A stretch of DNA of 64,000 bases. It comes from Phycisphaerae bacterium. GTDB lineage: Bacteria > Planctomycetota > Phycisphaerae > UBA1845. This document shows, piece by piece, positions 1-34,050 of the stretch. A model generated the notes under the pieces. It ran no database searches, was not told the origin of the DNA, and saw only the letters and a list, made by a program, of their open reading frames with translations. The stretch is from contig CAXXGO010000001.1 in NCBI GenBank assembly GCA_963666835.2, forward strand, positions 896,001-960,000, read 5' to 3'. The position numbers were made by a program, and so were the translations under genes. Each line of letters opens with the position of its first letter. The first letter of the stretch is position 1.

Positions 1-2
1 CG

Positions 3-3000
3 GGTTGGTTGTTGGCGGGTGATGTGAATCACGCCTTCGCGGCGGGGGTGACGCTCAGCGCCGGCGAATTCCTTGTTGTGGCCAAGGACGACGTGTTTCT
101 CGCAGGGACGGTGTCACCGGCGATTCCGGTTGGGGTCCAGGTGATCAAATGGGACAGCGGTGACTTACCGAACTCCGGTGGCGTTGTAGCGGTTGAGGAT
201 GATCTCTCCACGGAGGTGGATCGCGTTGTCTATGACGATGCCGCCCCGTGGCCTACCGGCGCGGACGGGTTCGGGCCTTCGTTGGAGTTGATCCACTCCG
301 ATTTCGACAATTCGTACGGTTCTGTATGGCGCGCTTCGGCGGCAACGAATGGCACGCCGGGTGTGGAGAACAGCGCGTACTCTTCTTCACCGGTGGTGCT
401 GAGCGAATCGCCGGCGCGGCTTTCGATTATTGCCAACCTGACGGAGGTGTCGGTCGTCTTCGCCGAACCCGTGCAGTCGGTGACGGCCAGCGATCTGGCG
501 GTTGATTCATCGCTGGCGACGAGTGTTGTGTGTGACACCTGTGTCGGGGGTGTTGGCGCCGGGCCGTATGTGTTCAGTGGTTTCACGGCGCCGACCACTA
601 GTCCGGTAAATGTGGCATTGGCACCGGGATCGATTGAGGATGAGAGCGGTCATTCGTTTGCCGGAGACACGTGGATCTACTCGTTTGAAATCCAGAACGT
701 GGTGATCAATGAGTTGCATTACAACCCGGACGGCGGTGACGATCTCGAGGAATTCATCGAGCTCCATAACGCTGAGCCTGATCCGGTGGATATCTCCGGT
801 TGGTCAGTAACGCATTTCTCGAATACCGGTTTTACGTTTCCGGCGTCCACGGTGCTGGCGGCTCGGGATTATGTCGTGATCGCTCGATACCCGGCGCACT
901 TATTGGCGGCAACGGGGTACACGACGGCGTATCAGTGGGACCCTGACGACAAGCTAAGCAACAGTGGGGAGACGGTTGCCCTGGAGACGCATCTGGGGAT
1001 CGTCGTTGACTCAGTGACCTACTCGGATTCGAACTCCGACCCGGCTTGGCCCGCGCTGCCGGACGGCGATGGGCCGTCGTTGGAGTTGCTCAATCCATCG
1101 CTGGACAACGAGCTGCCGGGTGCCTGGTCTGCTTCCGTGGGAACGCACGGCACGCCCGGAGCAGAGAACAGCGTGGCGACAGACGCTCCGCGGATTCTCA
1201 GTGAGCTGCCGGCTCGGGGTACTTCGGTTGAGTCATTAACAGACGTGACGGTGGTGTTCACGACGCCGGTGGAGAACGTCGTTGCCGGTGACTTGTTGGT
1301 CGCAGGTAGCGCGGCCACCACGGTCGTGCCGGCGAGTGGCCCTGCGGATACGTACACTTTCTCGGGTTTTGCAGTTCCGCCGGTTGGATCTGTCGTAGTC
1401 GTGTTGAATGCGGGGGCGATTGTAAGCGAGGAAGGTGGCATACCGTTCGGAGGGGCCTATTGGACGGTTTCGGCAGGTTTGGTGGTGTTGATCAACGAGA
1501 TTCACTATCACCCTGCGGCTCCCGACGACGATGTTGAGTTCATCGAGTTCTACAACGCTGGCGCCAATACGGCGGTGATGGATAACTGGACGATGTGCGA
1601 CGGGGTCGAGATGACGTTCCCGACGGGGACGACGTTGCCGCCCGGCGATTATCTGGTCATTGCGTTTGACACGACGCTGTTGGAGTCGGTAACCGGTTAC
1701 GCGGATGGGCTCGGCTGGAGTGACGGGCGTTTGTCGAATGGAGGGGAGGGGCTTGCACTTTGCGATGACGTTGGCAACGTGCTGGATGCGCTTACGTACG
1801 GTGACAGTGCGCCCTGGGCGTCGAGTACCGATGGTGACGGATCATCGTTGGAACTGATAAGTCCGCTTCTCCCCAACGAGTATGGAGGAGCCTGGCAGGC
1901 CTCGGTGGGGACGCATGGAACTCCGGGGGCGGAGAACAGCACGTACCAGCCGGCGCCACCGCCGATTATCCTCGATCCGATTCACGACCCACCCATCCCG
2001 GCATCAGATCAAGACGTGTTGATTACGGTTACGGTGATCGACGACGCGCCCGACCCGACCGTAACGCTGAACCACCGACAGGATCAGGAACCCCCTGTTG
2101 CGTATACCCTGACCACGATGTACGACGATGGCTTCCACGGGGACGGCCTGGCGGACGATCATCTGTACGGCGCGATTGTCGCCGGTTTGGCAGACGGCGA
2201 GCGCCTGGACTTTTTCATCTCGGCGGACGATGGGGCTGGTACCTCGATAGCCCCGGTGGGGCACTCGGTGCCGGATGGATCGGGGTACCCTTCGCAGACC
2301 TTTTTGGTCAAGTTCTCCGATGACGCGCCGGATCTCGAGTTCCCGACGTATCACCTGATTACCACTCAACACACCCGCGACTTGCAGGAGACGATAGATC
2401 GGACGTCCTACGACGCAACCTTCGTTCAGTGCGATACGAGCGGGACTTGCGAGGTGTTCTATAACGTCACCGAGCGTTACCGTGGCCACAGTACGTTGAC
2501 GGACACGCCGCACGGGTTCCGGATTGACTTCTCAGATGATCATCCGCTGCAATCCGAGATGGGATTCGAGATTACGGATCTCGTTCTGATGTCGCAGGAG
2601 ATCGATCGGCAGCATCTGGGCTACGAGTTCTTCAGAGAGGTCTTCGGCGGAGCGTTGCCGGCGTCGATGACGCAGTTCGTCAGATTGAATACGAATCCGC
2701 TCGCCCATGGAGGCGCGCAGAACTGGATTTACATTAACCTGGAGCGGGTCGACGATCGCTTCCTGGATTCGCAAGACGGCGGTGTCGGGGCGATGCGGTA
2801 TCCGAAGTTATGTAGCGATAATGGGGCTTCCTGCGACAACGACAGTGATTGCGTCGGCTCGTGCGTGAATCGGGCGAACGGGAATCTCTATCGAGCACGG
2901 CACACGGGCAATCTCGATTACCGAGGAGAGAATCCGGACGACTACCGAGCAACCGAACAGCCGGAAGGTGGCACGGACTACGGATACGACAAGGAGACGA

Positions 3001-6000
3001 ACGAGGCGGAGGATGACTGGACCGACCTGATCGATCTGTGCTTCGCTATCGATGCCGCAACGACGGATGGCGAGGATCTGGAAGCAGCCTTGGAGTCCCT
3101 GATTGATGTGGATCAATGGCTCCGCTGGTTCGGCGCTCACATGCTGCTTGCCAACGGAGAGGGCGGGTTGTACCGGGATAGTGGGGACGATTACTTCGTT
3201 TACTTCGAGCCGATCGAGTCGCCCAATGGGCACAATGCCACGCTGATTCCCTGGGATCTCGACGGTGTCTGGGGCGGTCACTGGTACAGAGACAACTACT
3301 GGGAACAGCCGACGATCTGGCGGACGGGCTGCGGGCACCCGTGCAATCCCTTCATGTCATGTCCTTCCCCGTTGGCTGACACTTCAGGCCGTTTTGTGCG
3401 TTCGAATGCGTTTGCAGGGCGTATGGTAAACGCTATTTGGGAGCTACTCGATAACGAGTTCACGCAGGCCAACGTAGACGCGATGGTCGACGCGATTCCC
3501 GACAGCGTTCTCGCCCAATCGATCTACTACGCCACCGCCGAGGACCGAAAGGCTCAGTTGAAGAGCTGGGCCGCGGACCGGCGAACGACGGTCCTCAATG
3601 AGATCGTCTCTCAGATGACATTGGACGGCCTGCCGTCGAGTCCGTACTCGGCGGCCGACCCGGTGATAGCGTTGAGCGGCGATCTCGATCAGCGCGGGAC
3701 ATATCAGGTTGTCCTGAATGATGAGCCCGTTGACTACTACAGCGTATTCAAGAACCCGTATCCGGATGAGCCGTGCGGATGGGGATCGGCGGGTGCCGAT
3801 TGGTCCAAGCAGCTCGTGTTGGGTCCCGGCGTGAACGAGATCATGGTCCAGTGTCTGGATCACGAAGGGGCGGAAGTGGATCGGGTCGAGGACACGGTGA
3901 CTTATTCGCCGTCGCCGTGGAATCTCCGTTTGACCGCGCCGAGCCGAATGGTGGCGGATAAGACGCTCACGCTGAAGGCGGAGTTGTTGGACCTGGCCGG
4001 TGAGATTCACTGGCGGGAGTGGAACACGGTAGGAACGGTATCGGCGCAACTGGTCTCGGACGGGACCCCGATTCCGACTACGATCACGGTGTTTGAATCG
4101 CATGCGGACGGGGTGGGGGGCGGCGTTCCGGCGGAGGACTCGATCCGGCTGTATAACGGGGTCGGGAGTGTATCGATCACGTTGGACGATCCGGCTTCCG
4201 TTGCCGGTCAGGCGATCGAGATCTTCGTCAACGTTGACGGGCTGGTGGCATCGAAGGTTGTCACGGTGCTCGAGAACGTCCCCGGCAACTTCAGGCAACT
4301 CTCCGGGACGCTCACCGGTGCGGATCTGGTTTGGGGGCCTGGCGATGGCGTGATTCATCTTACGGGTGACGTCACGATTCCCACGGGAGAGACGCTTTCG
4401 TTGGCTGCCGGTACGCTGGTAATGGTAGACGCCGGGTCGGAGGCGGCGGGCACGCGGATCTTGCTCAGCGGCAGTGCGGTGGACGCGCAGGGAACGGTGG
4501 CGAATCCGCTTTTCTTCTTCCCGACGGAGGGTGCCGCGGCGATGGCGTTGCCGCAGGGGCTGAACGAAAAGAACAACTTCTTCTCGTGGCGGGGATTCGC
4601 ATTCGAAGGGGCCGGTTCATCGACGTTCTCGTACGTGTTTCTCACGGGTGCCGGGAACGGTGCGATCGAATTCCATCCGCGCCCACCGGTGCTCTACCTG
4701 GCGGAAGGCGGAACTCACTCTCTGACGCTTACCGATTGCGTGTTCGCGGATGCGCCCGGAGAGATAGTATTCGCGAAGGGCAGCGGAACGTACACGATCT
4801 CGCGTTGTCTGTTCTCGCGCGTGGGGATCGGCGGCGAATTCGTAGGGGGGGATGACTACACAGTCCTCGTAGAGGACAGTTGGTTCACGCGGATCGGACG
4901 GGCTCCGGAAGAGAACAACGTAGACGGAGACATGCTCCATCTGGATCAGGTGACGACGGTTCCGCAAACCGTTCGGCGATGCATCTTCACGGACGGCGGC
5001 GACGACGTAATCGACCACAGCAACGGTGCGCATCCGGTGATTGAGGATTGCATCATCTACGATGCTCGGGACAAAGCGGTCAGCTTGTATTACAGCGGCG
5101 ATATCACGATGACGAACTGTCTCGTGTTTGATGTCCCCAACGGTATCGAGGCAACCGGCCGGCCCGTGTACCTTACCAACTGCACGTTCGGCCGTAATAC
5201 GCAAATCTCGAATCGCCAATGCAGTCTTAGCGACATAGACAAGTGTATTTTCTGGCCTATCAGCATTGTTACATGCTGCAACTACGTTGACTACACCCTG
5301 ATCGGCAGCGCCGGGCACCTTGGCTGCGGCACGTGCAATCTGGTTAAAGAAGCCGAAGAGCCGCTGTTTGTGGACTCGGCCGGCAACGATTTCAACCTGC
5401 ACCCGGATTCACCGGCCGTCGACGTTTGCGGACAGGGGCGGATTGGCTGGCTGGGCTTCCCGAGTGCGACTGCGTGTGCGACGGATGGGGATTGCGACGA
5501 CAGCGATGCGTGTACGATAGATGCATGCCATGTCGGCGTCTGCGTGCATGGAGGCCGGGACTGCTCCGCTTATGATGATGCGTGCAATGTCGGGGTCTGC
5601 AATGGCGGCACGGGCGAGTGCGAACCGCAGCCGGTGGCGGACGATACGCCGTGCTCCGACGGAGAGTTCTGCAACGGGTCCGAGACCTGCCAGGCGGGGC
5701 TCTGCGTTCCCTCGGCGGGTCCGTGTAATGACGGGGTGGATTGTACCGACGATTCGTGTGATGAGGTTGCGGACACGTGCAGCTACGTTCCCAACGACGG
5801 TCTTTGTGACAACGGTTTGTTCTGTGACGGCGCCGAAACCTGCGACGAGATCAGCGGGTGCGTGGACGGCGCGGAGCCGTGCGTAGACCAAGCCCACTGC
5901 GATGAAGCAGCGGACGCTTGTCTGAGTTGCGTCGAGGACGCGGACTGTGACAACGGGCTGTTCTGCGATGGGGTCGAGACGTGCGTCGACAACGAGTGTG

Positions 6001-7199
6001 TGGCGGGCGTCGATCCGTGCGACGATAGTGTGGCGTGTACGGATGACAGTTGCGAAGAGACTACGGACATCTGCAGCCACGTTCCGAATGACGGTCTTTG
6101 CGGCAACGGGTTATTCTGTGACGGCGCTGAAGCTTGTGACGAGATCAACGGGTGCGGAGACGGCGTCGATCCGTGCGTGGATCTGGCTCATTGTGACGAG
6201 GATTCGGACGTTTGCTACGAGTGCGTTATCGACGACGAGTGCGATGACGGCGCATACTGCAACGGAGCCGAGACGTGCGTTGACAACGAGTGCGTGTCGG
6301 ATGTTGATCCGTGTGGTGATCCTTGCGAGCAGTGCGACGAAGCCCGTGACACGTGCGAGTGGTGCATCTTCGAGCTGGACGGCGACGGCTTCATCGGCCC
6401 GGGTGATTTCTCGTTCTTTGCGGGGTGCTATGGGGACAGCTACAGTTGCGATCCACCCACTTATCGAACCGGTGCTGACGGCTGCTGTATAACGAACTTC
6501 GATGAAAGTTCCGACAGTTTCGTGGGGCCCGGTGACTTCTCCGGGCTCGCAGGTTGCTACGGTGATTACTGCGACGCTTGTTCCCTGTGCTGGGGGGCAC
6601 AGGGGCGCTACGGCGGTATTGCGGCGCAGGAATCCACACCGGCGGCGTCGCTGGCCTTGGTAGCGACTTCGACGCTTCACAGTTCGGAGGTTGCGGCGGA
6701 GCTTCCGCGTTCGGAGAACTCGTTCCGGATTGGAAGTTCCTTCTATATTGAACTCTGGGCGCGGGCGGGTCAAGGCGAACGTGGTCTGGCCGCCGTGCAT
6801 GCGAACGTGCGGCTGGATGTCTCGCGCTTGGCTGTGGAGCAGGTTCTACCGAGCGGCAAGTTCGGGTTGTTTTCTCGGAGCGCGTTTGATCCATCTGATG
6901 GACAAGTGGGATTGCTTGGTGGCTGTGCGTCGCTAAGTGAAAGTTCCCTGGACACGGAAACCTGGGTGCGCGTGGGGAGTATCAAGGTCCGCGCCACGGA
7001 AGTTGGCTCGACGAGCATAAAGACCGTTTCGGCGGGGAAGAAATACGGGGTCGCCATGGTGGAGGGGCTAGGCCTGTTGGATGCGGCGAAGATCTCGTTT
7101 GGGGAGGTCTCGCTGAGCGTGTACCGCCGCACGCCGGTTGTGGATCAGACGGAGGAGGCGGAAGTCAAGGGCAGGCGAGGAGCACCGGGCCGGCCGTAG
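3..7199 (+). CDS. Giant secreted multidomain protein, 5' end outside window: 3x lamin-tail domain with Ig-like spacers, CotH kinase, Ig-like, right-handed beta-helix, Cys-rich repeats, dockerin-like EF-hand pair, C-terminal cohesin-like domain
   Basis: Frame is open to the window edge. LTD motifs VVINELHYNP..EFIELHN and LSNSGE..DG.G.SLEL. CotH-like RYRGHST, YINLERVD, IPWDLD. Beta-helix DGDMLHLD..GGDDVIDH..DKAVS. EF-hand pair [21 protein letters not shown] / [23 protein letters not shown] at about 6363-6590. Cohesin-like FYIELWA..WVRVGSIKV at about 6650-7130. Confidence 0.85.
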   Translation, partial: GWLLAGDVNHAFAAGVTLSAGEFLVVAKDDVFLAGTVSPAIPVGVQVIKWDSGDLPNSGGVVAVEDDLSTEVDRVVYDDAAPWPTGADGFGPSLELIHSDFDNSYGSVWRASAATNGTPGVENSAYSSSPVVLSESPARLSIIANLTEVSVVFAEPVQSVTASDLAVDSSLATSVVCDTCVGGVGAGPYVFSGFTAPTTSPVNVALAPGSIEDESGHSFAGDTWIYSFEIQNVVINELHYNPDGGDDLEEFIELHNAEPDPVDISGWSVTHFSNTGFTFPASTVLAARDYVVIARYPAHLLAATGYTTAYQWDPDDKLSNSGETVALETHLGIVVDSVTYSDSNSDPAWPALPDGDGPSLELLNPSLDNELPGAWSASVGTHGTPGAENSVATDAPRILSELPARGTSVESLTDVTVVFTTPVENVVAGDLLVAGSAATTVVPASGPADTYTFSGFAVPPVGSVVVVLNAGAIVSEEGGIPFGGAYWTVSAGLVVLINEIHYHPAAPDDDVEFIEFYNAGANTAVMDNWTMCDGVEMTFPTGTTLPPGDYLVIAFDTTLLESVTGYADGLGWSDGRLSNGGEGLALCDDVGNVLDALTYGDSAPWASSTDGDGSSLELISPLLPNEYGGAWQASVGTHGTPGAENSTYQPAPPPIILDPIHDPPIPASDQDVLITVTVIDDAPDPTVTLNHRQDQEPPVAYTLTTMYDDGFHGDGLADDHLYGAIVAGLADGERLDFFISADDGAGTSIAPVGHSVPDGSGYPSQTFLVKFSDDAPDLEFPTYHLITTQHTRDLQETIDRTSYDATFVQCDTSGTCEVFYNVTERYRGHSTLTDTPHGFRIDFSDDHPLQSEMGFEITDLVLMSQEIDRQHLGYEFFREVFGGALPASMTQFVRLNTNPLAHGGAQNWIYINLERVDDRFLDSQDGGVGAMRYPKLCSDNGASCDNDSDCVGSCVNRANGNLYRARHTGNLDYRGENPDDYRATEQPEGGTDYGYDKETNEAEDDWTDLIDLCFAIDAATTDGEDLEAALESLIDVDQWLRWFGAHMLLANGEGGLYRDSGDDYFVYFEPIESPNGHNATLIPWDLDGVWGGHWYRDNYWEQPTIWRTGCGHPCNPFMSCPSPLADTSGRFVRSNAFAGRMVNAIWELLDNEFTQANVDAMVDAIPDSVLAQSIYYATAEDRKAQLKSWAADRRTTVLNEIVSQMTLDGLPSSPYSAADPVIALSGDLDQRGTYQVVLNDEPVDYYSVFKNPYPDEPCGWGSAGADWSKQLVLGPGVNEIMVQCLDHEGAEVDRVEDTVTYSPSPWNLRLTAPSRMVADKTLTLKAELLDLAGEIHWREWNTVGTVSAQLVSDGTPIPTTITVFESHADGVGGGVPAEDSIRLYNGVGSVSITLDDPASVAGQAIEIFVNVDGLVASKVVTVLENVPGNFRQLSGTLTGADLVWGPGDGVIHLTGDVTIPTGETLSLAAGTLVMVDAGSEAAGTRILLSGSAVDAQGTVANPLFFFPTEGAAAMALPQGLNEKNNFFSWRGFAFEGAGSSTFSYVFLTGAGNGAIEFHPRPPVLYLAEGGTHSLTLTDCVFADAPGEIVFAKGSGTYTISRCLFSRVGIGGEFVGGDDYTVLVEDSWFTRIGRAPEENNVDGDMLHLDQVTTVPQTVRRCIFTDGGDDVIDHSNGAHPVIEDCIIYDARDKAVSLYYSGDITMTNCLVFDVPNGIEATGRPVYLTNCTFGRNTQISNRQCSLSDIDKCIFWPISIVTCCNYVDYTLIGSAGHLGCGTCNLVKEAEEPLFVDSAGNDFNLHPDSPAVDVCGQGRIGWLGFPSATACATDGDCDDSDACTIDACHVGVCVHGGRDCSAYDDACNVGVCNGGTGECEPQPVADDTPCSDGEFCNGSETCQAGLCVPSAGPCNDGVDCTDDSCDEVADTCSYVPNDGLCDNGLFCDGAETCDEISGCVDGAEPCVDQAHCDEAADACLSCVEDADCDNGLFCDGVETCVDNECVAGVDPCDDSVACTDDSCEETTDICSHVPNDGLCGNGLFCDGAEACDEINGCGDGVDPCVDLAHCDEDSDVCYECVIDDECDDGAYCNGAETCVDNECVSDVDPCGDPCEQCDEARDTCEWCIFELDGDGFIGPGDFSFFAGCYGDSYSCDPPTYRTGADGCCITNFDESSDSFVGPGDFSGLAGCYGDYCDACSLCWGAQGRYGGIAAQESTPAASLALVATSTLHSSEVAAELPRSENSFRIGSSFYIELWARAGQGERGLAAVHANVRLDVSRLAVEQVLPSGKFGLFSRSAFDPSDGQVGLLGGCASLSESSLDTETWVRVGSIKVRATEVGSTSIKTVSAGKKYGVAMVEGLGLLDAAKISFGEVSLSVYRRTPVVDQTEEAEVKGRRGAPGRP

Positions 7200-7428: not shown

Positions 7429-10400
7429 ATGAAGCGCTGTGTTTGGCACCTGGCAATAGTATGTTTGGCATTGTGCCTGTGTTTTGGAAGTGGGACTGCG
7501 GTGATGGGCGCCGATACGGAGCTGCTATCGGCTACCTACCCGACATCGGAGCCGGGCCTTTGGACTACTACTCCTGCGGTCGTGGGTTTGCCGACGGGGG
7601 CGTTTAACACCGATCATGTGGACGTCGGTGACCCGACGAGCGAAGCGACGCATGCGATGGATGTATGCGACGACGATGGGAACGCGGCCGGTAACGCATG
7701 TTACAACGGCGATTGTTCTGCGCACGAGTGGGGCGGAGTCTGTACCTGGCTATCTGGGCGAACCATCCGTGCCATGTGGGAGCATGACGGGGTTGCCCCA
7801 GACGAGTCCGATCCCGGCGCTACAATGACATTGGATTTCGGCACGCTGGCGGTCAACAAGTACGTGGCGGTGCTCTGGAACCGTGGATCCGGCAATGACA
7901 GTTTCGACATCGAGATCGAGGGCGACGCTGGCGGTCCGTACCATGTAGCGTGGCTTTCGGGTTCGGGCAACAACGCCGCGATTACCGGCGTTTTTGATGT
8001 TGGGGTCCAAACCGGGGTGCAGATCGTGACGTTTACGGCGACTGAACCGGCTTGGAGCATGCAGAGTACTTATGCCCAGGCAATGGTCAGCGAGGTTGCG
8101 GTGTGGTCGGCGCCGGAGCCCGGCACGATTATCGTTGAGAAGCAGACCGATCCGGATGGCGCTGCTCAGAGCTTCGATTTCACCGGGGACGTGGCCGGGA
8201 CGATTGGGGATGGGCAGCAGCTTAGTGTTACGCTTCCGCCGGGGACCTACACATCACAGGAGACCTTGCTTGCCGGTTGGGAATTGACGTCTATCGTCTG
8301 TGACGACGGCAATAGCAGCGGCGACGTGGGGACGGGTACGGCCACCTTCCAGCTCGAAGAGGGCGAGACGGTTACCTGCGTCTTCACTAATACTCAGGTA
8401 GCGTTGTCGGCACCGGTCATCCTTAACGAATACAACGCCGTCGGTTCCAGCAAGTGGCTGGATTGTGATGGGCTCGAGTGCAGCGATGCCGAGGACGTCT
8501 ACTTCGGCCGCGTCGAGGGCAACGGGGGTAACTGGATCGAGTTGGTCGTGACCCAGGACAACCTCGACATGCGCGGTTGGTCCATCGAGTGGGTGGAAGA
8601 TACCGACTCCGGCACGATCACGTTTACCGATGATGATCGCTGGGAGAGCATGCAGGCCGGTACGATCATCACGTTAACGGAGCTATGCACCTCCGAAGGT
8701 GGGTTGGACACGCAAGCATTCTTCCACCCCGTCACTGACTGGTGGATCAACATCAATACTCTGTGCGAAGGCGTAGCTCAGGAGACGTACGTCACTACGA
8801 CGCATAGCAGTGCTCCGAATGGTAGTTTCTCGGTAGGGAATGACGACTTCCAGTTGACTATTCTGGACGAGACGTCCGCCGTGGTCTTTGGCCCGGTGGG
8901 CGAGGGGGTCTGCGATTTCGACGGCGTGGGAAGCCGCGAGGTCGGCAAGTTGGAAGAAGATCCCTCGCCGTCCGTTACCGCTTGTTCGGATTACAATGAC
9001 GGCACGTCGAGTAGCTTTGGCCATCCCAACCTGTGGGGCGACGGGGGCAACAGGCAGCGGTTTAACGATCTGCGCGGAGAGATTGTTAACATCGAGCTGG
9101 TAACGCTGAGCACGCCCAGCACAAGCGACGCAGCCGGGTTCAGTGTCTGCATGGCGGGCTTGGAGATGGGGCAGCCCTGCGCTGACGATTCTGATTGTAC
9201 GTTTGGCGGTGATGGATCTTGCCGCGGATTGCCCGAATTGCCGATATCAGAAACGCAGTTCGGCGTGGGCAGTGAGTTCTATCTTGAGGTGTGGGCGCAG
9301 ACGACTGAGCCTGGCGGATTGAGCAGTGTCTTTGCGGATATCGACTATGACCCGTGTGTGGTGACGGCGAATGAGATTGTCCATACTATGGCGTTTACGG
9401 CCAGCGGCTACGAACCCGAAGGGACGATCGACAGCGCGAACGGTGTTATAGACAATGTCGGCGGGCCCCATTTCGATGGAAGTTGTTCGACGGGTTTTGG
9501 CGTAGGACCGAATTGGGTTCGGGCGGCGTATATCGAGTTCACCGCGGATGCGCACGGCACTCCGTTGTTCACAAGTCGCAACACGGATTCGGGGTTCGAT
9601 AACGCCATTTGCGGTGTTCTCGGCCTTGTAGATCAAGACCGGGTTAGCTACGGAGAGCTGGCCGTGCAGGCGGGCGCGGAATCTGGGGACCTGGTTCTTG
9701 CGGTGCCGGCGGCGCCGCAGATTGTCGGGGTTGGCCAGCAGGTCACCGTAGACCTGAACGCGGCTAATCTGTCGACGGCAGTTTCCGGTGTCCAGGCGTT
9801 GATGCACTACAACACCCAGAACCTGAGTCTGGCCGGGGCAGCTTTGGTGTTGCCGTGGGATAATGAAATCAGCGTTCTGTACGGTGTGTGCGTGGGTGGC
9901 GATAACGAGGGAGCCCAATGCGGATTCAGCGGCGGCTTCGATTGCAGCGTTGGCGGCGGTTTGTGCGCCGAAACCGGAGATGTCCTGTTCAGCGCCGGCA
10001 TTGCCGGAAGTTCGACCGACGTCGACGGGACGGTCGCGACCTTCACCTTCAATGCAGTGGAAGACAGCTCGCCGGTCGTGAGCTTCCTCGAGGATATGCC
10101 CGCGGCATATCCCAGCATTTGCACGAAGTTGACTGATGCAAGCACCGCGGAGTTCATCAGTCCGAGCCGGACCGACACAATCGACGGCGACATCCAGATC
10201 CTGGACGGGGAGTGTTACATCGACGGCCAGTGGTATGACGACGGCGATCCGAACCCGCTTAACGAGTGCGAATTGTGCGATACGGCGACCGGTCTTTCTG
10301 CGTGGACTCCGGCCGCCTCGGGTTCGTCATGCGGTGCGACGCCGGGCGACTGCGAGAATCAGGATACTTGCGACGGTGCCGGCAGCTGTGTTGATAACGG

Positions 10401-21600: not shown

Positions 21601-23285
21601 GCGCCGTTGATGTTGGGGGCATGTACTTAACGGACGACTACGGTGATCCGACGAAGTGGTCGCTGCCGGCGGAGACGGTTATTCCGGGGACGAGTTGGCT
21701 GGTGGTTTGGGCTGATGGTGAGCCGGTTGAAGGTCTGTTGCACACGAGTTTTGCGTTGAGTTCACAGGGCGGCTCGGTGGGTCTGTACACGGCCGGTGGC
21801 GTTATTGTTGACTACCTGAACTATGGGGTACTTAGCGGAGACACCGCTTACGGCAAGTTTCCGGATGGGACGTCGTTGCGTCGAGTGCTATCGGTAGCGA
21901 CGCCGGGTTATGGGAACATGAGCGCGGTATCGCGCGTGATTCTCAACGAGTACAACGCGGTGAGCAGTTCTAACTACCTTAAGGACGGAGGCAGCGACAC
22001 ATGGTTCGGCCGGGTAGAGGGTAACGGTGGTAACTGGTTCGAACTGGTAGTTACGGAAGACCACACGGACATGAGTGGATGGTCACTGGAGTGGTCGGAG
22101 GAGAACGACTCGGGTTCGCTGACGCTGACGTCGGCTTTAGAGTGGAGTGATCTTCGTTCGGGGACAATCGTAACGTTCTCGGAATCGGACAGCAGCGCGG
22201 GTGGTTTGGACACGGACGCAAGTTACGATCCGGAATCTGGAGATTGGTGGATTCACATCAATACTTTGTCGGGCGGTGTCGCTCAAGAGAGTTATGTAAC
22301 GACCACGACGAACGTATCGGGTGATGGTCCGGGCAATTTTTCGGTTGGTAACGACGGTTGGCAGTTGCGGATATTGGATTCGTCGCAAGAGTTGGTGTAC
22401 GGTCCGGCCGGGGAAGGGATTTCGCCTTTGAGTGGTATCGGCAGCGACGAGGTATTCAAGTTGGAGGAGGATCCGAGTCCTCTGATCCATCCTTATTCTG
22501 ATTACAACGACGGCACGTCGAGTACTTTCGGCTCGCCGAACATCTACGCTTCGGGAACGGCGGTGCAGGATCTGACGGTTTTGCGGAACGTGTTCGTGGC
22601 TTGCGAGCACGACGAGGATTGTGAGGACGGTTTGTTCTGCAACGGCGAGTCTTTCTGCGTGGATGATGTTTGTGTGGCGGGTGAGGCTCCTTGCGACGAT
22701 GGTGTGCAGTGTACTGATGATTTGTGCGACGAGAGTACTGACAGTTGCACGTATACGCCGAATGACTCTCTTTGTAGCAACGGTTTGTTCTGTGATGGGG
22801 TTGAGGCTTGCGATGCGTTGTACGGATGTCAGGCGGGGACTGATCCTTGCCCTGGTTTACCGTGCGACGAGTTGAATGACGTTTGCGTAAGCGGGGAGTG
22901 CGTGGAGGACGCGGACTGTGCCGACGGCGTATTCTGTAACGGCGAGGAGCTGTGCGTTGATCAGAGTTGCGTATCCGGTGCAACGCCTTGTTCTGGCGTC
23001 TGTGAGGCTTGTGACGAGTCCACGGATTCGTGCATGTGGTGCATATTCGATCTTGACGGCGACGAGTTCATTGGCCCTGGGGATTTTTCGTTTTTCGCGG
23101 GTTGCTACGGGGGCAGCTATGCGTGCGATCCTCCGAACTATCGATCGGGAGCGGATCCGTGCTGCATAACGAATTTCGACGAAAGCGCGGACAGTTTCGT
23201 TGGTCCGGGTGACTTCTCGGGCCTGGCGGGTTGCTACGGTGGTGGGTGCGGCGAATGTGCGAATTGTTGGGGGCAGGGCCGGTGA
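18507..23285 (+). CDS. Secreted CotH kinase protein: LTD, chitobiase/Fn3-associated domain, CotH, chitobiase-like, 3x LTD, Cys repeats, dockerin-like tail
   Basis: ATG 18507 follows [16 protein letters not shown] (LTD); [58 protein letters not shown]. Confidence 0.88.
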
Positions 23286-23306
23286 CGGGCGGCGGCGAGA
23301 AAGACG
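20734..23306 (+). repeat. 2573-bp near-identical repeat B, copy 1; copy 2 at 25395-27967
   Basis: Offset 4661. Shadow ORFs in several frames are identical between copies (e.g. 21114-21449 and 25775-26110). Only two mismatches noticed, both in the dockerin coding part; not checked base by base. Confidence 0.95.
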
Positions 23307-23515
23307 GGTCCTGCAAAGGCGGAGTATCGCTGGTTCGTAGCGCCCAAAGCGGCGCTGGTGCGGCGAGGGGGTTGTTAGGAGGGCGTAGGATGACGCGTGG
23401 GCGGCGAAGCGTGTTTGCGCTCGTTTTGAGTTGGGCGTGCGTGTTCGGTATGGGCAAAGCTGCTGATGGGGCGGATCCGATGATCACGGAGTTTATGGCG
23501 TCGAACAGCAGCACG
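22862..23515 (+). repeat. Repeat A copy 2
   Basis: Matches 17979-18632. Confidence 0.95.
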
Positions 23516-26500: not shown

Positions 26501-27946
26501 GACACCGCTTACGGCAAGTTTCCGGATGGGACGTCGTTGCGTCGAGTGCTATCGGTAGCGACGCCGGGTTATGGGAACATGAGCGCGGTATCGCGCGTGA
26601 TTCTCAACGAGTACAACGCGGTGAGCAGTTCTAACTACCTTAAGGACGGAGGCAGCGACACATGGTTCGGCCGGGTAGAGGGTAACGGTGGTAACTGGTT
26701 CGAACTGGTAGTTACGGAAGACCACACGGACATGAGTGGATGGTCACTGGAGTGGTCGGAGGAGAACGACTCGGGTTCGCTGACGCTGACGTCGGCTTTA
26801 GAGTGGAGTGATCTTCGTTCGGGGACAATCGTAACGTTCTCGGAATCGGACAGCAGCGCGGGTGGTTTGGACACGGACGCAAGTTACGATCCGGAATCTG
26901 GAGATTGGTGGATTCACATCAATACTTTGTCGGGCGGTGTCGCTCAAGAGAGTTATGTAACGACCACGACGAACGTATCGGGTGATGGTCCGGGCAATTT
27001 TTCGGTTGGTAACGACGGTTGGCAGTTGCGGATATTGGATTCGTCGCAAGAGTTGGTGTACGGTCCGGCCGGGGAAGGGATTTCGCCTTTGAGTGGTATC
27101 GGCAGCGACGAGGTATTCAAGTTGGAGGAGGATCCGAGTCCTCTGATCCATCCTTATTCTGATTACAACGACGGCACGTCGAGTACTTTCGGCTCGCCGA
27201 ACATCTACGCTTCGGGAACGGCGGTGCAGGATCTGACGGTTTTGCGGAACGTGTTCGTGGCTTGCGAGCACGACGAGGATTGTGAGGACGGTTTGTTCTG
27301 CAACGGCGAGTCTTTCTGCGTGGATGATGTTTGTGTGGCGGGTGAGGCTCCTTGCGACGATGGTGTGCAGTGTACTGATGATTTGTGCGACGAGAGTACT
27401 GACAGTTGCACGTATACGCCGAATGACTCTCTTTGTAGCAACGGTTTGTTCTGTGATGGGGTTGAGGCTTGCGATGCGTTGTACGGATGTCAGGCGGGGA
27501 CTGATCCTTGCCCTGGTTTACCGTGCGACGAGTTGAATGACGTTTGCGTAAGCGGGGAGTGCGTGGAGGACGCGGACTGTGCCGACGGCGTATTCTGTAA
27601 CGGCGAGGAGCTGTGCGTTGATCAGAGTTGCGTATCCGGTGCAACGCCTTGTTCTGGCGTCTGTGAGGCTTGTGACGAGTCCACGGATTCGTGCATGTGG
27701 TGCATATTCGATCTTGACGGCGACGACTTCATTGGTCCTGGGGATTTTTCGTTTTTCGCGGGTTGCTACGGGGGCAGCTATGCGTGCGATCCTCCGAACT
27801 ATCGATCGGGAGCGGATCCGTGCTGCATAACGAATTTCGACGAAAGCGCGGACAGTTTCGTTGGTCCGGGTGACTTCTCGGGCCTGGCGGGTTGCTACGG
27901 TGGTGGGTGCGGCGAATGTGCGAATTGTTGGGGGCAGGGCCGGTGA
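23390..27946 (+). CDS. Second secreted CotH kinase protein; same signal peptide and C-terminal ~850 aa as 18507-23285 but a divergent LTD-CotH core
   Basis: ATG 23390 follows [54 protein letters not shown]. Confidence 0.88.
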
Positions 27947-28194: not shown

Positions 28195-31100
28195 ATGAGA
28201 AGACTTCTGATTGAAACACGGTTCATTGGTTGCTTGTTTCTGGCGCTCGGTGTCACGGGGACGGGTGTATTGGGCGATTACGGCGACCCGGACGGACTCA
28301 TCAACGGCCCGTTTCCGCCGACGGAGCCGCATCCGCGTTTCTCGGTTTCACCGGATGTGACTGTACTCCCCGCGGGTGCGGTATTAGTCGACTACGTGGA
28401 CATTGGAGACCCATCAAATGACCCATACGGGTTTGGGGACGAAAGCGCACACTTGCTTGAGCCGGCGTGCCCCCTCGATTGTTCCGGTACGGAATGCGGG
28501 ACGGGAACGGGAGACAGTTGGGGCCCGGTGTGCAGTTGGTCTGATGCGTCCCTGCGGGCGATCTGGGAATGCGGAATGGCAGGAACGACGAGCGAATCCG
28601 CGACGATCAACATGGATTTTGGACCGACCGTCGTGAACAAATACATCGCCCTGCGGTGGCAAGGCGGTGCGGCCGACGACAGTTTCAGTATGGAGATAGC
28701 AGGAAACCCCGGCGTCCAGTATCAGGTGCAGCACCTCCAGGCGGGCTCTAACGCGTGCTTCAATATCGGCGTGTGGGATGTGGGAATTCTGACAGGGTTG
28801 CAGACTCTTACGCTTACGGCAACGGCTTCAGCGTGGGCGAGCCAGGAAGTCTATGGGCAGGTGATGATCAGCGAGATTGCCGTGTGGGAAGGTCCTTCCG
28901 CACCGTCACGGACTGTCGAAATAGACCTGGTGGCTTTGAGCACGCCGAGCAGCAGTGACAGCGTAGGATTCACCGTTTGCATGAGTGGGTTGGAGTTCGG
29001 GCAACCGTGCAACGATGATTCCGATTGCACGTTTGGCGGCGAGGGTGCTTGCAGGGGGCTTGCGGAGCTGCCTGTGTCGGAAACCCAGTTCGAGGTGGGG
29101 GAGACGCTCTATCTTGAAATGTGGGCCCAGACGACTAATGCAGATGGTCTGGCTGCGGTCTACGCTGATGTGCACTTTGATCCTTGTATTCTAACGGCAA
29201 CACAGATTTTCCATAGCATGGCTTTCACCGTCGGGGGTTTCGAGCCGGTAGGCGCCATCGACAATGCTGCGGGGTTGATTGACGATGTGGGTGGTCCCCA
29301 CCTGGATGGTCAATGCACAACGGAGTATGGATTCGAGCCGATGTGGGTGCGGGTGGCCTATGTGGAGTTTACGGTCGAGGGTGACGGCGCGATCGAGTTT
29401 TCCAGCAGTGATACCGGCAGCGGATTCGGCAGCGCAATCTGTGGAACGCTGGGCGTAGTGGATGCTGAGGAAGTGGAGTTCGGAGAAGTTGGCGCGCAAG
29501 CAGGTACAGAAGCAGCGGAGCTGGTGCTTGATATTCCGGGCGCTCCCGTCGTTGTACAGATGGGTGAACAAGTGGATGTCATGCTGAAAGTCGCCAATCT
29601 GACAACGGCGATTAATGGCGTCCAAGCGCTTATACACTATGATGACAGCGTATTGAGCTTGGTTGGGATTATACCGGCACACCTCGGGCTGGATAAACAC
29701 ATAGTGAGCAATGCGGCGATTGCATCCGTGGCCCCCAGCCGGCGGGGGGGTACGCAAAAGAGACGGCAATGGGGACGGTCAGCCGTGCCGGCGACGGACT
29801 CAACGGATGCGGTGTTAGCATCGGCCGCGGCGGGGTGGGTCGAGATTAGTGAGAGCGACGTCGGAGGGGACATTGCCTATGCGGCGCAGATCCAGGGAGG
29901 TTCGACGACGGCAGACGGCACCGTGGCGACGTTGACGTTTGAGGCTGTTGCCACGGGAACGCCGGTGATAAGTTTCCTGCCGAACCGCCCACCCGCCCAT
30001 CCGACGCTTTGCACGAAAGTCACTGATGCAAGCAATGCGCAGGCGATCTTCCCGGTGAAAACGGATACTCACCGCGGGGATATCAGCATAGGGGAGGCAC
30101 AGTGCTTTATTGACGGGGAGTGGTACGACGCCGGGGAACTGAATCCGGAGCAAGAATGTGAGTGGTGTGTGCCGTCGGTAGGCGGGACATCGTGGACGCC
30201 ACGCGCGGCAGGCACGAACTGCGGCGACGCACCTGACCTGTGCGAGGAGCAGGATGCGTGCGACGGAGCGGGAGAGTGTGTGGCAGGCGGAAGCAGGGCG
30301 GAGGGCACGGAATGCCGGGCGTCGGTCGGCGAATGCGATGTGGCGGAAGTTTGTGATGGCATTAGTGCCGAATGTCCGGTCGACGGGTTTGCAGTCGCCG
30401 GGACGGACTGTGGAGCGGCGCCGGATGTATGTGAAGAACGAGACACATGCGACGGAGCGGGCGTATGTTCAGACAATGGCGTGAAAGCAGCAGGCACAGA
30501 ATGCCGTCCAGCCATCGGTGAATGTGACGTGATGGAAGTCTGCGATGGGGTGAGCGCGGCATGTCCGGCTGATGGTTTTGCGGTAACGGGCAGCCATTGC
30601 GGTCCGGCTCCGGAGGTCTGCGAAGAGCAGGATACGTGTGACGGTGCTGGGAGCTGTGTGGATAACGGGATCAAAGTGGCCGGCACCGTCTGCCGCGAAG
30701 CGGTAGGGGATTGTGACGCTACGGAGTCCTGCGATGGAGTAAGCGGGAGCTGTCCGGCGGATGCGTTCCTTGACGCAGGTGTTTCTTGCGGATCGGTGTT
30801 GGGGCCGTGCGATGGCCAGGATACGTGTGACGGCACAGGTGGATGTGTCGATACGGGTTTCGTGGCTGCGGGAACGGAGTGTCGGGCCGCTTCCGGGGTG
30901 TGCGATGTGCCGGAAGTGTGTCCTGGAGATGGGCCGGAGTGTCCGGTGGACGCGTATGCCGGGGCGGGCGTTGAGTGTCGAGCGGCCGTAGGCGGTTGCG
31001 ACGTGGCGGAGTACTGCCCGGGTGACTCGGCGGAGTGTCCGACGGATTCAGTAGCAAATGGCGGTAACGAGTGTCGGGCAGTGGCCGGTGCCTGCGATGT

Positions 31101-32331
31101 GGCAGAAGTCTGCGACGGTGTTGCCCATGCTTGTCCGGCCGACAGCTATGCGGATTGGAGCCGGGAGTGTCGAGCGGTTGCGGGTGGTTGCGATGTGGCG
31201 GAGTACTGCCCCGGTGATAGTCCGGATTGCCCTGCGGATGTTGTAGTTGCGGGTGGCACTGAATGCCGCGCAGTTGCGGGCGTCTGCGACGTTGCAGAGG
31301 AATGCGACGGTGTGAATGCGGTCTGTCCGGCTGACGCCTTTGCTGATTACACCACGGAATGTCGTGCGTCGAGCTGGGCTTGTGATCCGGCGGAGTTTTG
31401 CCCCGGGGACGGACCGGACTGTCCACCGGATGATCCCGATGCGACGTATATAGATGTGGAAATCGAGGTTGGAGCGTTGACTGGCGCGGCGGGTGTATAC
31501 GGCGTGACGGCGGCCTGCCCGTTACGCGATTGTGTTACACGAGATGTGACGTTTATCATCGGGTCGTGCGGAGGACCAGAGGAGGTCCGTATTGTGCCCG
31601 TGACGTTCACCGCGGATTTACTGAACAACGTTGGTGTCGGGTATGCGACGCTGGCTGATGTCGATAACAACGCGGAGTGGATCCAGGCTACGGAGGGGCA
31701 CGCGCTTAGCCGTATGCTGCCCCTGGTGTTTGACGGTGCTGGCGGTTGCTCATCTGCTGCCAGCTTTACCGGGGCGAGTCGCTTGATCCCCGGTGACTAC
31801 TCGAATGCGACGGTGGCGCAAGACAACTTGGTTGATATCACTGATTTCTCCATTCTGGCGATTGAGTGGAATCAGACGGTTGCTGCGGACCTGGGAAGTT
31901 TGGCTGATGCGACGGGTGACGGTGTTCAGGATTCTTTCGATTTCGCGCCGTTACAGATGAGCTATGCCCAGACCGGTGATGACAGAGATGTCTTCTGCGA
32001 AAGGGGCGGCATTGCCGGCGGCGGCGATGAAGCCGGCGTCTCTGTCTTGGCTGGCGTTGACGTTTGGCGCCAAGGTGCCGGTGCGGTCGGCGGTGAGCTC
32101 GGCTCAGCCGGGCTTTGTCGCATGGCGGCCCGCACGCGGATCGCGGTGTCCGATCTTAGCAGCAGGAACGCGCAACTGGCTGACATCAACCATGACGGTG
32201 TGATTGACGCATCGGATATTCGAGCTTTCGCCGACGTGCATGGTTTGGTGTTGACGCCGCAGTTCAGCGCGAGACTTACCGCGTTGGAGCTGAGCGGAGT
32301 ATCTGGAGAACTTGAACTGGAGCACGAATAG
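28195..32331 (+). CDS. Secreted scaffold-like protein, shorter paralog of 7429-14223: N-terminal domain, two cohesin-like domains, disintegrin-like repeats, dockerin-like EF-hands
   Basis: ATG 28195 follows GAGGAG; signal peptide MRRLLIETRFIGCLFLALGV. LYLEMWAQ..WVRVAYVEF; INGVQALIHY; C-terminal ASDIRAFADVHGLVLTPQFSARL is shared with 7429-14223. Confidence 0.85.
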   Translation: MRRLLIETRFIGCLFLALGVTGTGVLGDYGDPDGLINGPFPPTEPHPRFSVSPDVTVLPAGAVLVDYVDIGDPSNDPYGFGDESAHLLEPACPLDCSGTECGTGTGDSWGPVCSWSDASLRAIWECGMAGTTSESATINMDFGPTVVNKYIALRWQGGAADDSFSMEIAGNPGVQYQVQHLQAGSNACFNIGVWDVGILTGLQTLTLTATASAWASQEVYGQVMISEIAVWEGPSAPSRTVEIDLVALSTPSSSDSVGFTVCMSGLEFGQPCNDDSDCTFGGEGACRGLAELPVSETQFEVGETLYLEMWAQTTNADGLAAVYADVHFDPCILTATQIFHSMAFTVGGFEPVGAIDNAAGLIDDVGGPHLDGQCTTEYGFEPMWVRVAYVEFTVEGDGAIEFSSSDTGSGFGSAICGTLGVVDAEEVEFGEVGAQAGTEAAELVLDIPGAPVVVQMGEQVDVMLKVANLTTAINGVQALIHYDDSVLSLVGIIPAHLGLDKHIVSNAAIASVAPSRRGGTQKRRQWGRSAVPATDSTDAVLASAAAGWVEISESDVGGDIAYAAQIQGGSTTADGTVATLTFEAVATGTPVISFLPNRPPAHPTLCTKVTDASNAQAIFPVKTDTHRGDISIGEAQCFIDGEWYDAGELNPEQECEWCVPSVGGTSWTPRAAGTNCGDAPDLCEEQDACDGAGECVAGGSRAEGTECRASVGECDVAEVCDGISAECPVDGFAVAGTDCGAAPDVCEERDTCDGAGVCSDNGVKAAGTECRPAIGECDVMEVCDGVSAACPADGFAVTGSHCGPAPEVCEEQDTCDGAGSCVDNGIKVAGTVCREAVGDCDATESCDGVSGSCPADAFLDAGVSCGSVLGPCDGQDTCDGTGGCVDTGFVAAGTECRAASGVCDVPEVCPGDGPECPVDAYAGAGVECRAAVGGCDVAEYCPGDSAECPTDSVANGGNECRAVAGACDVAEVCDGVAHACPADSYADWSRECRAVAGGCDVAEYCPGDSPDCPADVVVAGGTECRAVAGVCDVAEECDGVNAVCPADAFADYTTECRASSWACDPAEFCPGDGPDCPPDDPDATYIDVEIEVGALTGAAGVYGVTAACPLRDCVTRDVTFIIGSCGGPEEVRIVPVTFTADLLNNVGVGYATLADVDNNAEWIQATEGHALSRMLPLVFDGAGGCSSAASFTGASRLIPGDYSNATVAQDNLVDITDFSILAIEWNQTVAADLGSLADATGDGVQDSFDFAPLQMSYAQTGDDRDVFCERGGIAGGGDEAGVSVLAGVDVWRQGAGAVGGELGSAGLCRMAARTRIAVSDLSSRNAQLADINHDGVIDASDIRAFADVHGLVLTPQFSARLTALELSGVSGELELEHE
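30200..31430 (+). repeat. Intragenic Cys-rich array alternating CG..CE.QDTCDG.G.C and disintegrin-like CRA..CDVAE.C.G..CP.D units
   Basis: Seen in the translation; boundaries approximate. Confidence 0.85.
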
Positions 32332-32826: not shown

Positions 32827-34050
32827 ATGAGCGGAAGGAAGTCGGTTGTTGCCACGGTGCTTGTGGTTTCGTGTGTGTTGGTGGCTCCGATGCAGGGTGC
32901 CGTTGATTTGGAGTTGCGGCCGGTGGCGCCGGCGTACGAGATTGGTGACACTGTACAAGTGGGGATCTACGCGTCGGCGGATGGCGAAAGCGGTGAGGTG
33001 GTCCGGGCCGTCAACGTGATCCTGGAATGGGATCCGGGGGTCATGGAACTCATCGGTGTTGACGATGCGGGCCCGTACGACTGGCTCATGTCTGGGTTTT
33101 TCAGCGATGCGGAGTTGGACGGCTTGAACGCCGATTGTGGGCCGGAGATCTTCTGCGAGCCTTACACTTATCTTCCGTACAACGATGGCGACGGGTACTA
33201 TCAAGCGATCGGGAACTTCAGCAACACTGCTGTTGCGCCGCCCTCGGGATTGCTGGTTTCGATTCTGGAGTTTCGCGCTTTGTCGATGGCTCTCGGAAGC
33301 GAGCTACGAATCGTTAGCGACGTAGGTGGGGTCACGACGACGGCCGTGGTCGGCGAATCGGGTCAGGACGTGCTTGGGGCTCTGGGCACGTGTTCGGTCA
33401 ACATCAATCCGGCTGTCGATTGGGGCATGCTCTCATTGTCGGCGCCTGTCAACACTTGCCTCTGGGCGCCGCCGGGTGGCTCTACGTATGTTGATCTTGT
33501 CGTGTCCGATCTGGCACAGTCGGTGAACGGCGTTCAGGCGTTGGTGCAGTATGACGAAACGCGATTGACTTTTGTCGGCGCGACGGGCGGGGATGGGTTG
33601 GGTTCTCCGTGGGATGCTGCGGCTGTTGCTGCTACCCAACTTGATGACGGCGTCGTGTCTGTCGGTGGCGTGTTGCTTGGCGGCAGCAGCGACGCCGACA
33701 GTGTTGTCGCGGAGCTCGAGTTCGTCACGGCGCCGGATATCACGTCGGGCCTGACCAGCGTCGAACTTCTTGTCCAGTTTCCACCTTTGGTTACGAAACT
33801 GACCAATGCGGCGACGGCGGAGGACGTTTATCCGGAGGTTTCGGGTCTGCAGATTGTAGAGCTGGCGGGCGACATAGATGCGGAGGGCGACGTTGATCTC
33901 GCCGATTATGCGGCCTTCGCGGTTTGCTATGGCTCCGATGTTGAGCTGGGAGACTGCTGCTGCTTTGACTTCGATTCCGATGGCGATGTTGACGGAGACG
34001 ACTACTACTTCCTCCACTCTGCTTGGACCGGGCCGCTTTCCATTCCATAG
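32827..34050 (+). CDS. Small secreted adaptor-like protein: two cohesin-like domains + C-terminal dockerin
   Basis: ATG 32827 follows GAGGGA; signal peptide MSGRKSVVATVLVVSCVLVAPMQG. VNVILEWDPGVMEL; VNGVQALVQYDETRLTF; GDIDAEGDVDLADY..FDFDSDGDVDGDDY. Confidence 0.8.
   Translation: MSGRKSVVATVLVVSCVLVAPMQGAVDLELRPVAPAYEIGDTVQVGIYASADGESGEVVRAVNVILEWDPGVMELIGVDDAGPYDWLMSGFFSDAELDGLNADCGPEIFCEPYTYLPYNDGDGYYQAIGNFSNTAVAPPSGLLVSILEFRALSMALGSELRIVSDVGGVTTTAVVGESGQDVLGALGTCSVNINPAVDWGMLSLSAPVNTCLWAPPGGSTYVDLVVSDLAQSVNGVQALVQYDETRLTFVGATGGDGLGSPWDAAAVAATQLDDGVVSVGGVLLGGSSDADSVVAELEFVTAPDITSGLTSVELLVQFPPLVTKLTNAATAEDVYPEVSGLQIVELAGDIDAEGDVDLADYAAFAVCYGSDVELGDCCCFDFDSDGDVDGDDYYFLHSAWTGPLSIP

Follow-up and report, generated by a model that had tools for sequence, protein, structure and literature searches.

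A 64,000-nucleotide window from the genome of a Phycisphaerae bacterium (here G000, contig C1, positions 896001-960000; coordinates below are window positions unless they carry a genome or locus prefix) was found to contain a cluster of seven genes whose products may assemble into an extracellular docking system. The seven long, co-oriented open reading frames, here lettered A to G, occupy window positions 1-34050 on the forward strand. We consider it probable (roughly 0.6) that the seven large, likely secreted proteins form a tiered, non-cellulosomal and likely surface-anchored complex, whose cargo at this locus consists of CotH and beta-helix domains. That such assembly proceeds by cohesin-dockerin contacts is likely.

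Modular architecture of the seven proteins

An original prediction, made from the sequence alone, had described seven co-oriented secreted giants, and the frames lie where it placed them. The starts at 7429, 14533, 18507, 23390, 28195 and 32827 are each accompanied by a purine-rich stretch resembling a ribosome-binding site and by a signal-peptide-like N terminus, as judged by eye. The same features were seen for gene A (1..7199), which starts 193 nucleotides upstream of the window (G000:C1:895808) and encodes about 2,460 amino acids. Its product combines a signal peptide, several LTDs, a CotH domain with a Glu variant (2475..3503; Pfam E 2e-27, supported by alignment to 5JD9 and by motif surveys), a right-handed beta-helix with conserved Asp-rich motifs (4272..5480; Pfam PF13229 and alignment), Cys-rich repeats, a dockerin-like module named dockA (6354..6602) and a C-terminal cohesin-like module named X (6642..7124).

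Gene B (7429..14223) is primary-scaffoldin-like by Pfam, homology and profile searches. Its product consists of an N domain, a prealbumin-like domain, an LTD variant, tandem cohesin-like modules X and C (9085..10203) and disintegrin-like Cys repeats, followed by a domain without assignment and a Y module with a dockerin-like module, dockB, and an extra tail EF-hand (13288..14169). The same types of searches identified gene F (28195..32331) as a paralog of B, with an N domain, X (28918-29505), C (29512-30093), Cys repeats, Y-dockB (31429-31977) and a tail EF-hand. Gene G (32827..34050) appears adaptor-like and encodes cohesin-like modules G1 (32899-33411) and C (33421-33870) and a generic dockerin-like module, dockG (33862-34032).

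The remaining three genes end in dockA. Gene C (14533..18402; Pfam, homology and profiles) encodes a beta-helix, Cys repeats, an unassigned domain (17056-17847) and the terminal dockA. Gene D (18507..23285) encodes an LTD, an Fn3-associated domain, CotH (19611-20627), further LTDs, Cys repeats and dockA (23031-23282), and gene E (23390..27946; Pfam and motif surveys) repeats this layout with a different CotH (24560-25288). Pfam detected CotH and LTDs in A, D and E and the beta-helix in A; the beta-helix of C is homologous to that of A (44% identity over 825 columns). The earlier description of four genes with CotH and/or beta-helix cores was borne out for the beta-helix in A and C and for CotH in A, D and E, so that there are only three CotH genes and none in C. 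Its division into enzymes and scaffolds is blurred, as in A the dockerin is followed by a C-terminal cohesin, and B carries an LTD-like domain that is 55% identical to one in D/E.

No catalytic family of carbohydrate-active enzymes (CAZymes; glycoside hydrolases and polysaccharide lyases), no CBM3 and no peptidase family was found by Pfam in the seven proteins, in line with the earlier failure to recognize a CAZyme. The search for an informative PDB sequence match to the beta-helix of A gave none, and the ESM Atlas returned only generic beta-helix clusters for that of C and only nameless clusters for the unassigned domain of C.

Three classes of cohesin-like modules

Iterated profiles split the seven cohesin-like modules into the classes X (A, B and F), C (B, F and G) and G1 (G). 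One member per class was modelled with AlphaFold2 (AF2), and the X and C modules of B and F were assigned by homology. The model of X of A reached a mean predicted local distance difference test (pLDDT) score of 90 and aligned to cohesin 2vo8 with a VIA Z score of 15.6 (root mean square deviation [rmsd] 2.0, 130 residues aligned); cohesins were also its top matches in Foldseek. In the model of G (mean pLDDT 87), G1 aligned to 2w1n (VIA Z 15.8, rmsd 2.1, 133 aligned) and C to 2vo8 (VIA Z 17.4, rmsd 2.2, 133 aligned). The top 16 rows of both wide fold searches were all cohesins. Pilin and adhesin domains came after them at Z 10-12 (best rows 11.8 and 10.8), about 4-6 Z units lower.

At the sequence level, the best structural matches share only 8-16% identity with the modules. 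The C profile matched the solved cohesin 3l8q (E 4e-11), and hhalign placed X and G1 against the C profile with probabilities of 94% and 97%. For Pfam PF00963 (Cohesin), G passed the cut-off of 24.1 (29.9), F (23.0) and B (19.2) fell below it, and X was not listed; a PDB sequence search gave 0 matches for X and nothing useful for G1. The cohesin-like domains that had been proposed at 6650-7130, 9085-10200, 28915-30090 and 32900-33860 were thus found in all four places. Their possible identity as carbohydrate-binding module (CBM) or immunoglobulin (Ig) folds only, which would have spoken against that proposal, was ruled out, as solved cohesins match first (Z 15.6-17.4). Judging from the models, the modelled X, G1 and C modules almost certainly have the cohesin fold, a nine-stranded beta-sandwich.

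A tree of 49 X domains separated N-terminal, anchor and X-C copies, including those of B and F, from copies that follow a dockerin, including that of A. The split has support of 100/99, with one post-dockerin row falling among the others and the bootstrap not fully settled. The post-dockerin X is the more divergent subclass, and its consensus differs from that of anchor and scaffold X domains. Among the X-class proteins, P0067 carries four tandem X cohesins and one C cohesin and resembles a polyvalent scaffoldin.

Three classes of dockerin-like tails

The tails were likewise resolved by iterated profiles into dockA (A, C, D and E), Y-dockB with the extra EF-hand tail (B and F) and the generic dockG (G). 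Pfam Dockerin_1 passed its cut-off only for B and F; A, C, D, E and G were not listed. The best PDB match of the dockB profile was dockerin 2y3n_B (E 4e-8), which was also the best match of the dockA profile, at E 0.0017 only. The Cys-rich EF-hand pair noted earlier in A, C, D and E was recovered by profile search. In a dockA alignment of 30 rows, eight columns are invariant, seven of them Cys. The module contains two calcium-loop/helix segments and forms three helices in the AF2 model, as dockG does in the model of G. Fold searches with the dockA-X model of A returned lists filled by the X domain and free of dockerin chains. With its duplicated calcium loop and helix, dockA is likely a dockerin, though less firmly so than dockB. 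The expectation that the tails would match dockerins was supported by Pfam for B and F and, for dockA, by a best match of modest E value.

DockA directly followed by X is a very common unit, and the gap between the two was 12 to 22 residues in 20 of 21 cases. For A, the single-chain AF2 model of dockA-X had a predicted template modeling (pTM) score of 0.88, with two of five models confident, and hints at a fixed packing of the two modules, either as cis closure or as chaining.

Within G000, there are 60 Pfam Dockerin_1 matches at E<=0.1 and 93 matches to the dockG profile. Dockerin-like tails are therefore not special to the locus; the dockA class itself is rare. There are only five copies each of dockA (four of them in this locus) and X, all in the locus or in one X-dockA-X gene on contig C6. 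In nine further genes, dockB is combined with a C cohesin, and a G1 gene comes directly after two of them. Orthologs of A in four other genomes (G280:C6, G163:C5, G055:C5 and G292:C153; loci L093, L095, L050/L018 and L097) end in a fourth dockerin-like type and a beta-rich C-terminal domain. The latter was not detected by the X, C and G1 profiles, and the two may form another cohesin-dockerin class.

Gene order and co-occurrence in relatives

We analyzed which tail precedes which cohesin in related genomes. The loci were chosen from profile matches (to X or dockA in the case of the X loci), so that nearness is partly selected; adjacency and direction are not. Of 23 genes starting with X, 21 came after a dockA gene and none after a dockB gene. 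Genes starting with G1 came after a dockB gene in 20 of 35 cases, after a dockA gene in 1 and after neither in 14, with six more lacking upstream DNA. For genes starting with C, the preceding gene carried dockG in 7 of 20 cases, dockB in 3, dockA in 0 and none of them in 10 (two further genes lacked upstream DNA). The order in the window (A before B, E before F, F before G) agrees with that of the relatives.

Furthermore, the classes tend to occur together. Across 61 genomes, dockA at E<=1e-9 was found in 12, exactly those with X below 1e-36; nine had weaker X matches only, and 40 had neither. G1 and Y-dockB agreed in all but 5 of these genomes, 35 having both and 21 having neither. In G280, which belongs to another family, a syntenic series consists of a CotH giant, a phosphoesterase-dockA-X protein, an LTD-X-C-Y-dockB protein and a G1-C-dockG protein. 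Backed by these gene-order regularities and by the synteny in G280, the hierarchy of enzymes, scaffolds and adaptors that had been proposed for the locus is the best reading of it. Its tiers would pair dockA with X, Y-dockB with G1 and dockG with C, a scheme that we consider somewhat more probable than not.

As a side observation, L043, a record titled Acidobacteriota, also has a G1 gene behind a dockB gene, and the system may therefore reach beyond Planctomycetota.

Candidate anchor proteins

Eight proteins with X as their only module of this kind end in IPTL-CTERM-like tails (TIGR04174 was listed for seven of the eight and above cut-off in three). Proteins with only G1 have PEP-CTERM-like tails; TIGR02595 was above cut-off in 3 of 11 scanned, and others show the motif by eye. 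In G000 itself, a protein with two C cohesins (C1:2000508) ends in IPTL-CTERM above cut-off, a weakly G1-like protein (C1:1994498) has a PEP-CTERM-like C terminus, and the genome encodes two full-length exosortases. The X of B and F groups with the anchor X and apart from post-dockerin X in the tree. No paper that brings cohesin, dockerin and PEP-CTERM together turned up in the literature library searched. A possible alternative anchor is a G1-dockG protein elsewhere in the genome (L083:2684-4279, reverse strand; G000:C3:657684-659279), which between its modules partially matches a family of peptidoglycan-binding anchors (E 4e-5).

Proposed assembly

According to the tiered reading, the proteins would be exported by Sec, and disulfides and Ca2+ would fold the tails. 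The dockA tails of A, C, D and E would dock onto X cohesins of the N type in B and F, whose Y-dockB would in turn bind G1 of G or the G1-like module of the PEP-CTERM protein at C1:1994498. The generic dockerin of G could then bind a C-type cohesin, such as those of the C-C-IPTL-CTERM protein encoded at C1:2000508; this protein would be attached to the envelope by an exosortase. The C cohesins of B, F and G that are left free may recruit some of the approximately 90 generic dockerin proteins of the genome. D and E would likely act as kinases on surface or scaffold proteins, and A is likely a pseudokinase or has altered chemistry.

Several points weigh against this reading. All pairings are drawn from gene order and co-occurrence among related, non-independent genomes, the X threshold of 1e-36 was set after the data had been seen, and the frequent fusion of dockA and X is itself enough to give co-occurrence. 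Nine genomes have weaker X matches and no dockA at the cut-off, 15 of the 35 G1-first genes are not preceded by a dockB gene, and the link between C and dockG is the weakest (7 of 20). DockA is divergent and missed by Pfam, with Gly at loop position 9 and a second loop two residues longer than the first. No anchor gene lies inside the locus, the sorting signals are not on the seven proteins, and the G1 match of the PEP-CTERM protein of G000 is weak (E 1e-3). B and F hold two cohesins each, unlike polyvalent primary scaffoldins, which have three or more. In two genomes (G009 and G272), pairs of CotH genes occur without X, C or G1 cohesins nearby. Finally, CotH activity would call for a source of ATP outside the cell, a puzzle that passages of PMC12774918 also raise for cellulosomal CotH. 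A complex prediction for X of F, dockA of D and two Ca2+ gave no answer (0.08 and 0.06 against a mark of 0.32, with controls not folded) and was used neither way.

A more far-reaching version is doubtful: Phycisphaerae would operate a surface docking system of several tiers, with three or more mutually orthogonal, disulfide-stabilized cohesin-dockerin pairs that are reflected in gene order and held on a diderm envelope by exosortase signals, and this locus would use it for an extracellular kinase/pseudokinase module (Asp-type CotH of D and E, Glu-type CotH of A) that phosphorylates and regulates the surface assembly.

CotH domains and the range of cargo

Three of the five CotH genes of G000 lie in this locus. 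In Bacillus subtilis CotH, D228 and D251 are needed for activity, according to the pertinent passages of PMC7821199. We mapped these residues via 5JD9 to the Asp residues of an N-x-D and a W-D motif, using the motifs and their 23-residue spacing. Both are kept in the CotH domains of D and E, with other changes nearby in D. In A, the D228 equivalent is replaced by Glu (N-x-E), and the D251 equivalent is kept. This replacement is conserved, as 24 of the 25 rows covering the site have Glu at the catalytic Asp in the clade of A (26 rows, one of them truncated, including A itself and some near-duplicates). Most rows of this clade are without the paired lysines of the canonical CotH motif, which we take to have a role in ATP binding. 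The conserved Glu suggests a pseudokinase or altered chemistry for A rather than decay, and D and E are likely to be active kinases on surface or scaffold proteins. Members of the A clade are often fused to a beta-helix and were also found under names from Omnitrophica and Hinthialibacter (P0214-P0232); the available text of a preprint on Omnitrophota giant genes mentions no CotH.

The prominence of CotH invites the reading that the locus encodes a dedicated extracellular kinase machine, whose docking modules serve to bring CotH kinases and substrates together, for example in surface-coat patterning. Besides the three CotH genes of the locus, A-type CotH giants were found inside cohesin/dockerin clusters in four other genomes (G003, G055, G163 and G280), mostly near a second, canonical CotH. 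Furthermore, a metallophosphoesterase giant is the immediate neighbor of the A-type gene in G280 (L093:2482-11088, reverse strand) and G292 (L097:6598-10422, forward strand), possibly as a kinase/phosphatase pairing. Seven of 61 dockA homologs (up to 2,000 amino acids) carry CotH, five of them from outside this locus. The same 61, however, include seven S8 peptidases, four FG-GAP proteins, one GH116 and one multicopper oxidase, and the 16 dockA proteins from the loci of relatives include five S8 peptidases and one each of CotH, GH116, oxidase and di-haem peroxidase. DockA also occurs on a metallophosphoesterase in relatives, where dockA proteins combining S8 with a P-domain are found too. In 8 of the 12 dockA-bearing genomes (completeness 89-100%), there was no CotH match, and with this query only 6 of 251 class-level genomes yielded an A-type CotH. 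Moreover, the docking tails of orthologous CotH giants vary from genome to genome, and the count of three CotH genes is inflated by recent duplication. A dedicated kinase machine is therefore unlikely, and the claim that the complex is built around CotH rather than glycoside hydrolases found no support as a general rule. By comparison of these sequences, CotH is likely a locally amplified, interchangeable cargo of the tiered docking system.

Alternative roles of the docking modules

The frequent dockA-X unit could also mean that the proteins with both dockerin and cohesin (A, B, F and G) chain or self-close into an adhesive mesh, a self-polymerizing matrix stiffened by Cys and Ca2+ in which CotH is structural. 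The packing suggested by the pTM of 0.88 and the Glu at the catalytic Asp position of A would suit such a mesh, and a structural role is among those considered for cellulosomal CotH in passages of a review (PMC12484212). The X that follows dockA, however, belongs to a separate and more divergent subclass than anchor and scaffold X, gene order ties dockA to the N-type X of the next gene, and the catalytic Asp pair is intact in D and E, making this reading improbable as well.

It is very unlikely that there is no assembly at all, with the tails as generic Ca2+-binding tags for export or stability and the cohesin-fold modules as stalks gathered by duplication in an island flanked by insertion sequences (ISs): at least 60 dockerin-like tails genome-wide, transposases on both flanks, near-identical repeats from recent reshuffling and the second rank of pilin/adhesin domains (Z 10-12) would fit, but cohesins exceed those domains by about 4-6 Z units, proteins combining cohesins with sorting signals and the four-X protein P0067 make sense mainly as receptors, and the class-specific gene order (21/23 versus 0/23) would need another explanation.

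Comparison with known systems

Non-cellulosomal docking in Phycisphaerae has been proposed before. In the relevant passages of Andrei et al. (2019), a "planctosome" is hypothesized for the cohesin/dockerin proteins of Nemodlikiaceae (PMC6461901). As outlined there, that system shares with our locus the cohesin/dockerin proteins in Phycisphaerae, giants containing LTDs, an adaptor with cohesin and dockerin and non-CAZyme cargo, and it is likewise hypothetical. Its defining traits, namely, cohesin/dockerin modules, LTDs and non-CAZyme cargo, are thus all present at our locus. The planctosome passages, in contrast, name M12B and M14 peptidases activated by P-domains as cargo and LTDs as anchors, whereas the cargo here is CotH and beta-helix, no peptidase family is present, and the anchors are apparently IPTL-CTERM and PEP-CTERM proteins. 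We also tell apart three cohesin and three dockerin classes, on which supplementary figures 13-14 of that study may bear. Similar cohesin/dockerin proposals are found in passages on Cloacimonadota (PMC8542988), and a two-cohesin scaffoldin is described for Limihaloglobus in part of PMC11557425.

Complex cellulosomes are organized in tiers, as set out in sections of PMC12484212. These comprise an enzyme dockerin, a primary scaffoldin with X-dockerin, an adaptor and an anchoring scaffoldin. The locus resembles the complex cellulosomes of Acetivibrio cellulolyticus and Clostridium thermocellum in its cohesin fold, in the accessory module before the dockerin of the scaffold, in the cohesin-dockerin adaptor and in its separate anchors, and Y-dockB of B resembles the layout of X-module and type II dockerin. 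It differs in the Cys-rich dockerins and linkers, the diderm host and the anchors, which are of the exosortase type and not of the SLH/sortase type, and in cargo that may bear its own cohesin. The locus does not qualify as a cellulosome: no cellulase or CBM3 was recognized, and none of its proteins has more than two cohesins. The best structural matches of its cohesins, the glycoside hydrolase cohesins of Clostridium perfringens (2vo8 and 2w1n) and Archaeoglobus 2xdh, are non-cellulosomal and belong to enzymes with their own cohesin; they differ in cargo and in sequence, with the low identity given above.

Dockerin-borne CotH is known from clostridial and fungal cellulosomes, as reported in parts of PMC6083626, PMC12484212 and PMC12774918. 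Listed among the C. thermocellum dockerin type I proteins in a table of PMC6083626 are Cthe_0239 (LTD-LTD-Fn3-CotH) and CseP. D and E have nearly the layout of Cthe_0239, with LTD, Fn3-associated domain, CotH and dockerin. Cellulosomal CotH proteins (Cthe_0239, CseP, Ccel_1101 and the fungal CotH-dockerins) are minor members of their systems, whereas CotH dominates this locus, and the Glu-variant CotH with beta-helix of A represents a clade distinct from them. The CotH spore-coat kinases (B. subtilis; B. cereus 5JD9) share the Pfam CotH domain, above cut-off in A, D and E, and the D251 equivalent with all three proteins, and the D228 equivalent with D and E only. Unlike spore-coat CotH, the CotH proteins of the locus are secreted multidomain giants, and, to our knowledge, the host organism is not known to sporulate.

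Both the CotH-dockerin idea and docking in Phycisphaerae had been proposed previously. The cluster itself is a real feature, but framing it around kinases claims too much. Of greater use are the pattern of three pairing classes, the exosortase-type anchors and the Glu-variant CotH clade. If the pairings hold, they provide a concrete parts list for the planctosome idea, with matching plugs and sockets and a means of fixing to a double-membraned cell, and would offer new orthogonal, disulfide-stabilized cohesin-dockerin pairs for designer enzyme scaffolds. The modules are all small and expressible for binding tests. The locus is also a test case for the role of dockerin-borne extracellular CotH, including the widespread Glu-variant clade.

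Recent duplication and possible island character

D and E share a direct repeat of 2,573 bp with 99.9% identity (20734..23306 and 25395-27967, forward strand), a recent duplication or conversion of their C-terminal halves by sequence comparison. An assembly artefact was ruled out, as contigs from runs of two studies end at the repeat borders, with both unique CotH segments present, and read depth over the repeat was about twice that of the flanks in those runs (27 versus 14-19 and 15 versus 7-10). At the DNA level, the dockA copies of C, D and E are 99% identical, compared with 76% for A. The tail is indeed common to the four genes, as predicted, but C, D and E are recent copies, and it therefore counts as two versions and not as four independent occurrences.

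An IS3/IS481-like transposase gene lies at the cluster edge (34310..35401, reverse strand; NCBIfam E 3e-20 and 3e-24, below cut-offs), and a second one is found some 4 kb upstream of gene A. Over window 1-34000, the coding strand shows a high GC skew (0.09-0.27), and GC content falls to 57% over D/E compared to 61% for the genome. Together with the transposases on both sides, this makes the locus look like an island.

Additional domains and neighboring genes

For the B domain at 10927-11568, no homolog was found among the 59 loci searched. The N domain of about 170 amino acids in B (7594-8109) and F (28372-28890) is without a Pfam or PDB match. In G003, a dockB protein contains four copies in tandem and a GH116-dockA protein a single one, contexts that suggest a carbohydrate-binding module. 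The unassigned domain of gene C at 17056-17847 recurs alongside dockG and also in the G003 protein with GH116. Beyond the transposase at the cluster edge, a gene for a DUF4132/HEAT-repeat protein (36088-39102) opens an unrelated gene block.

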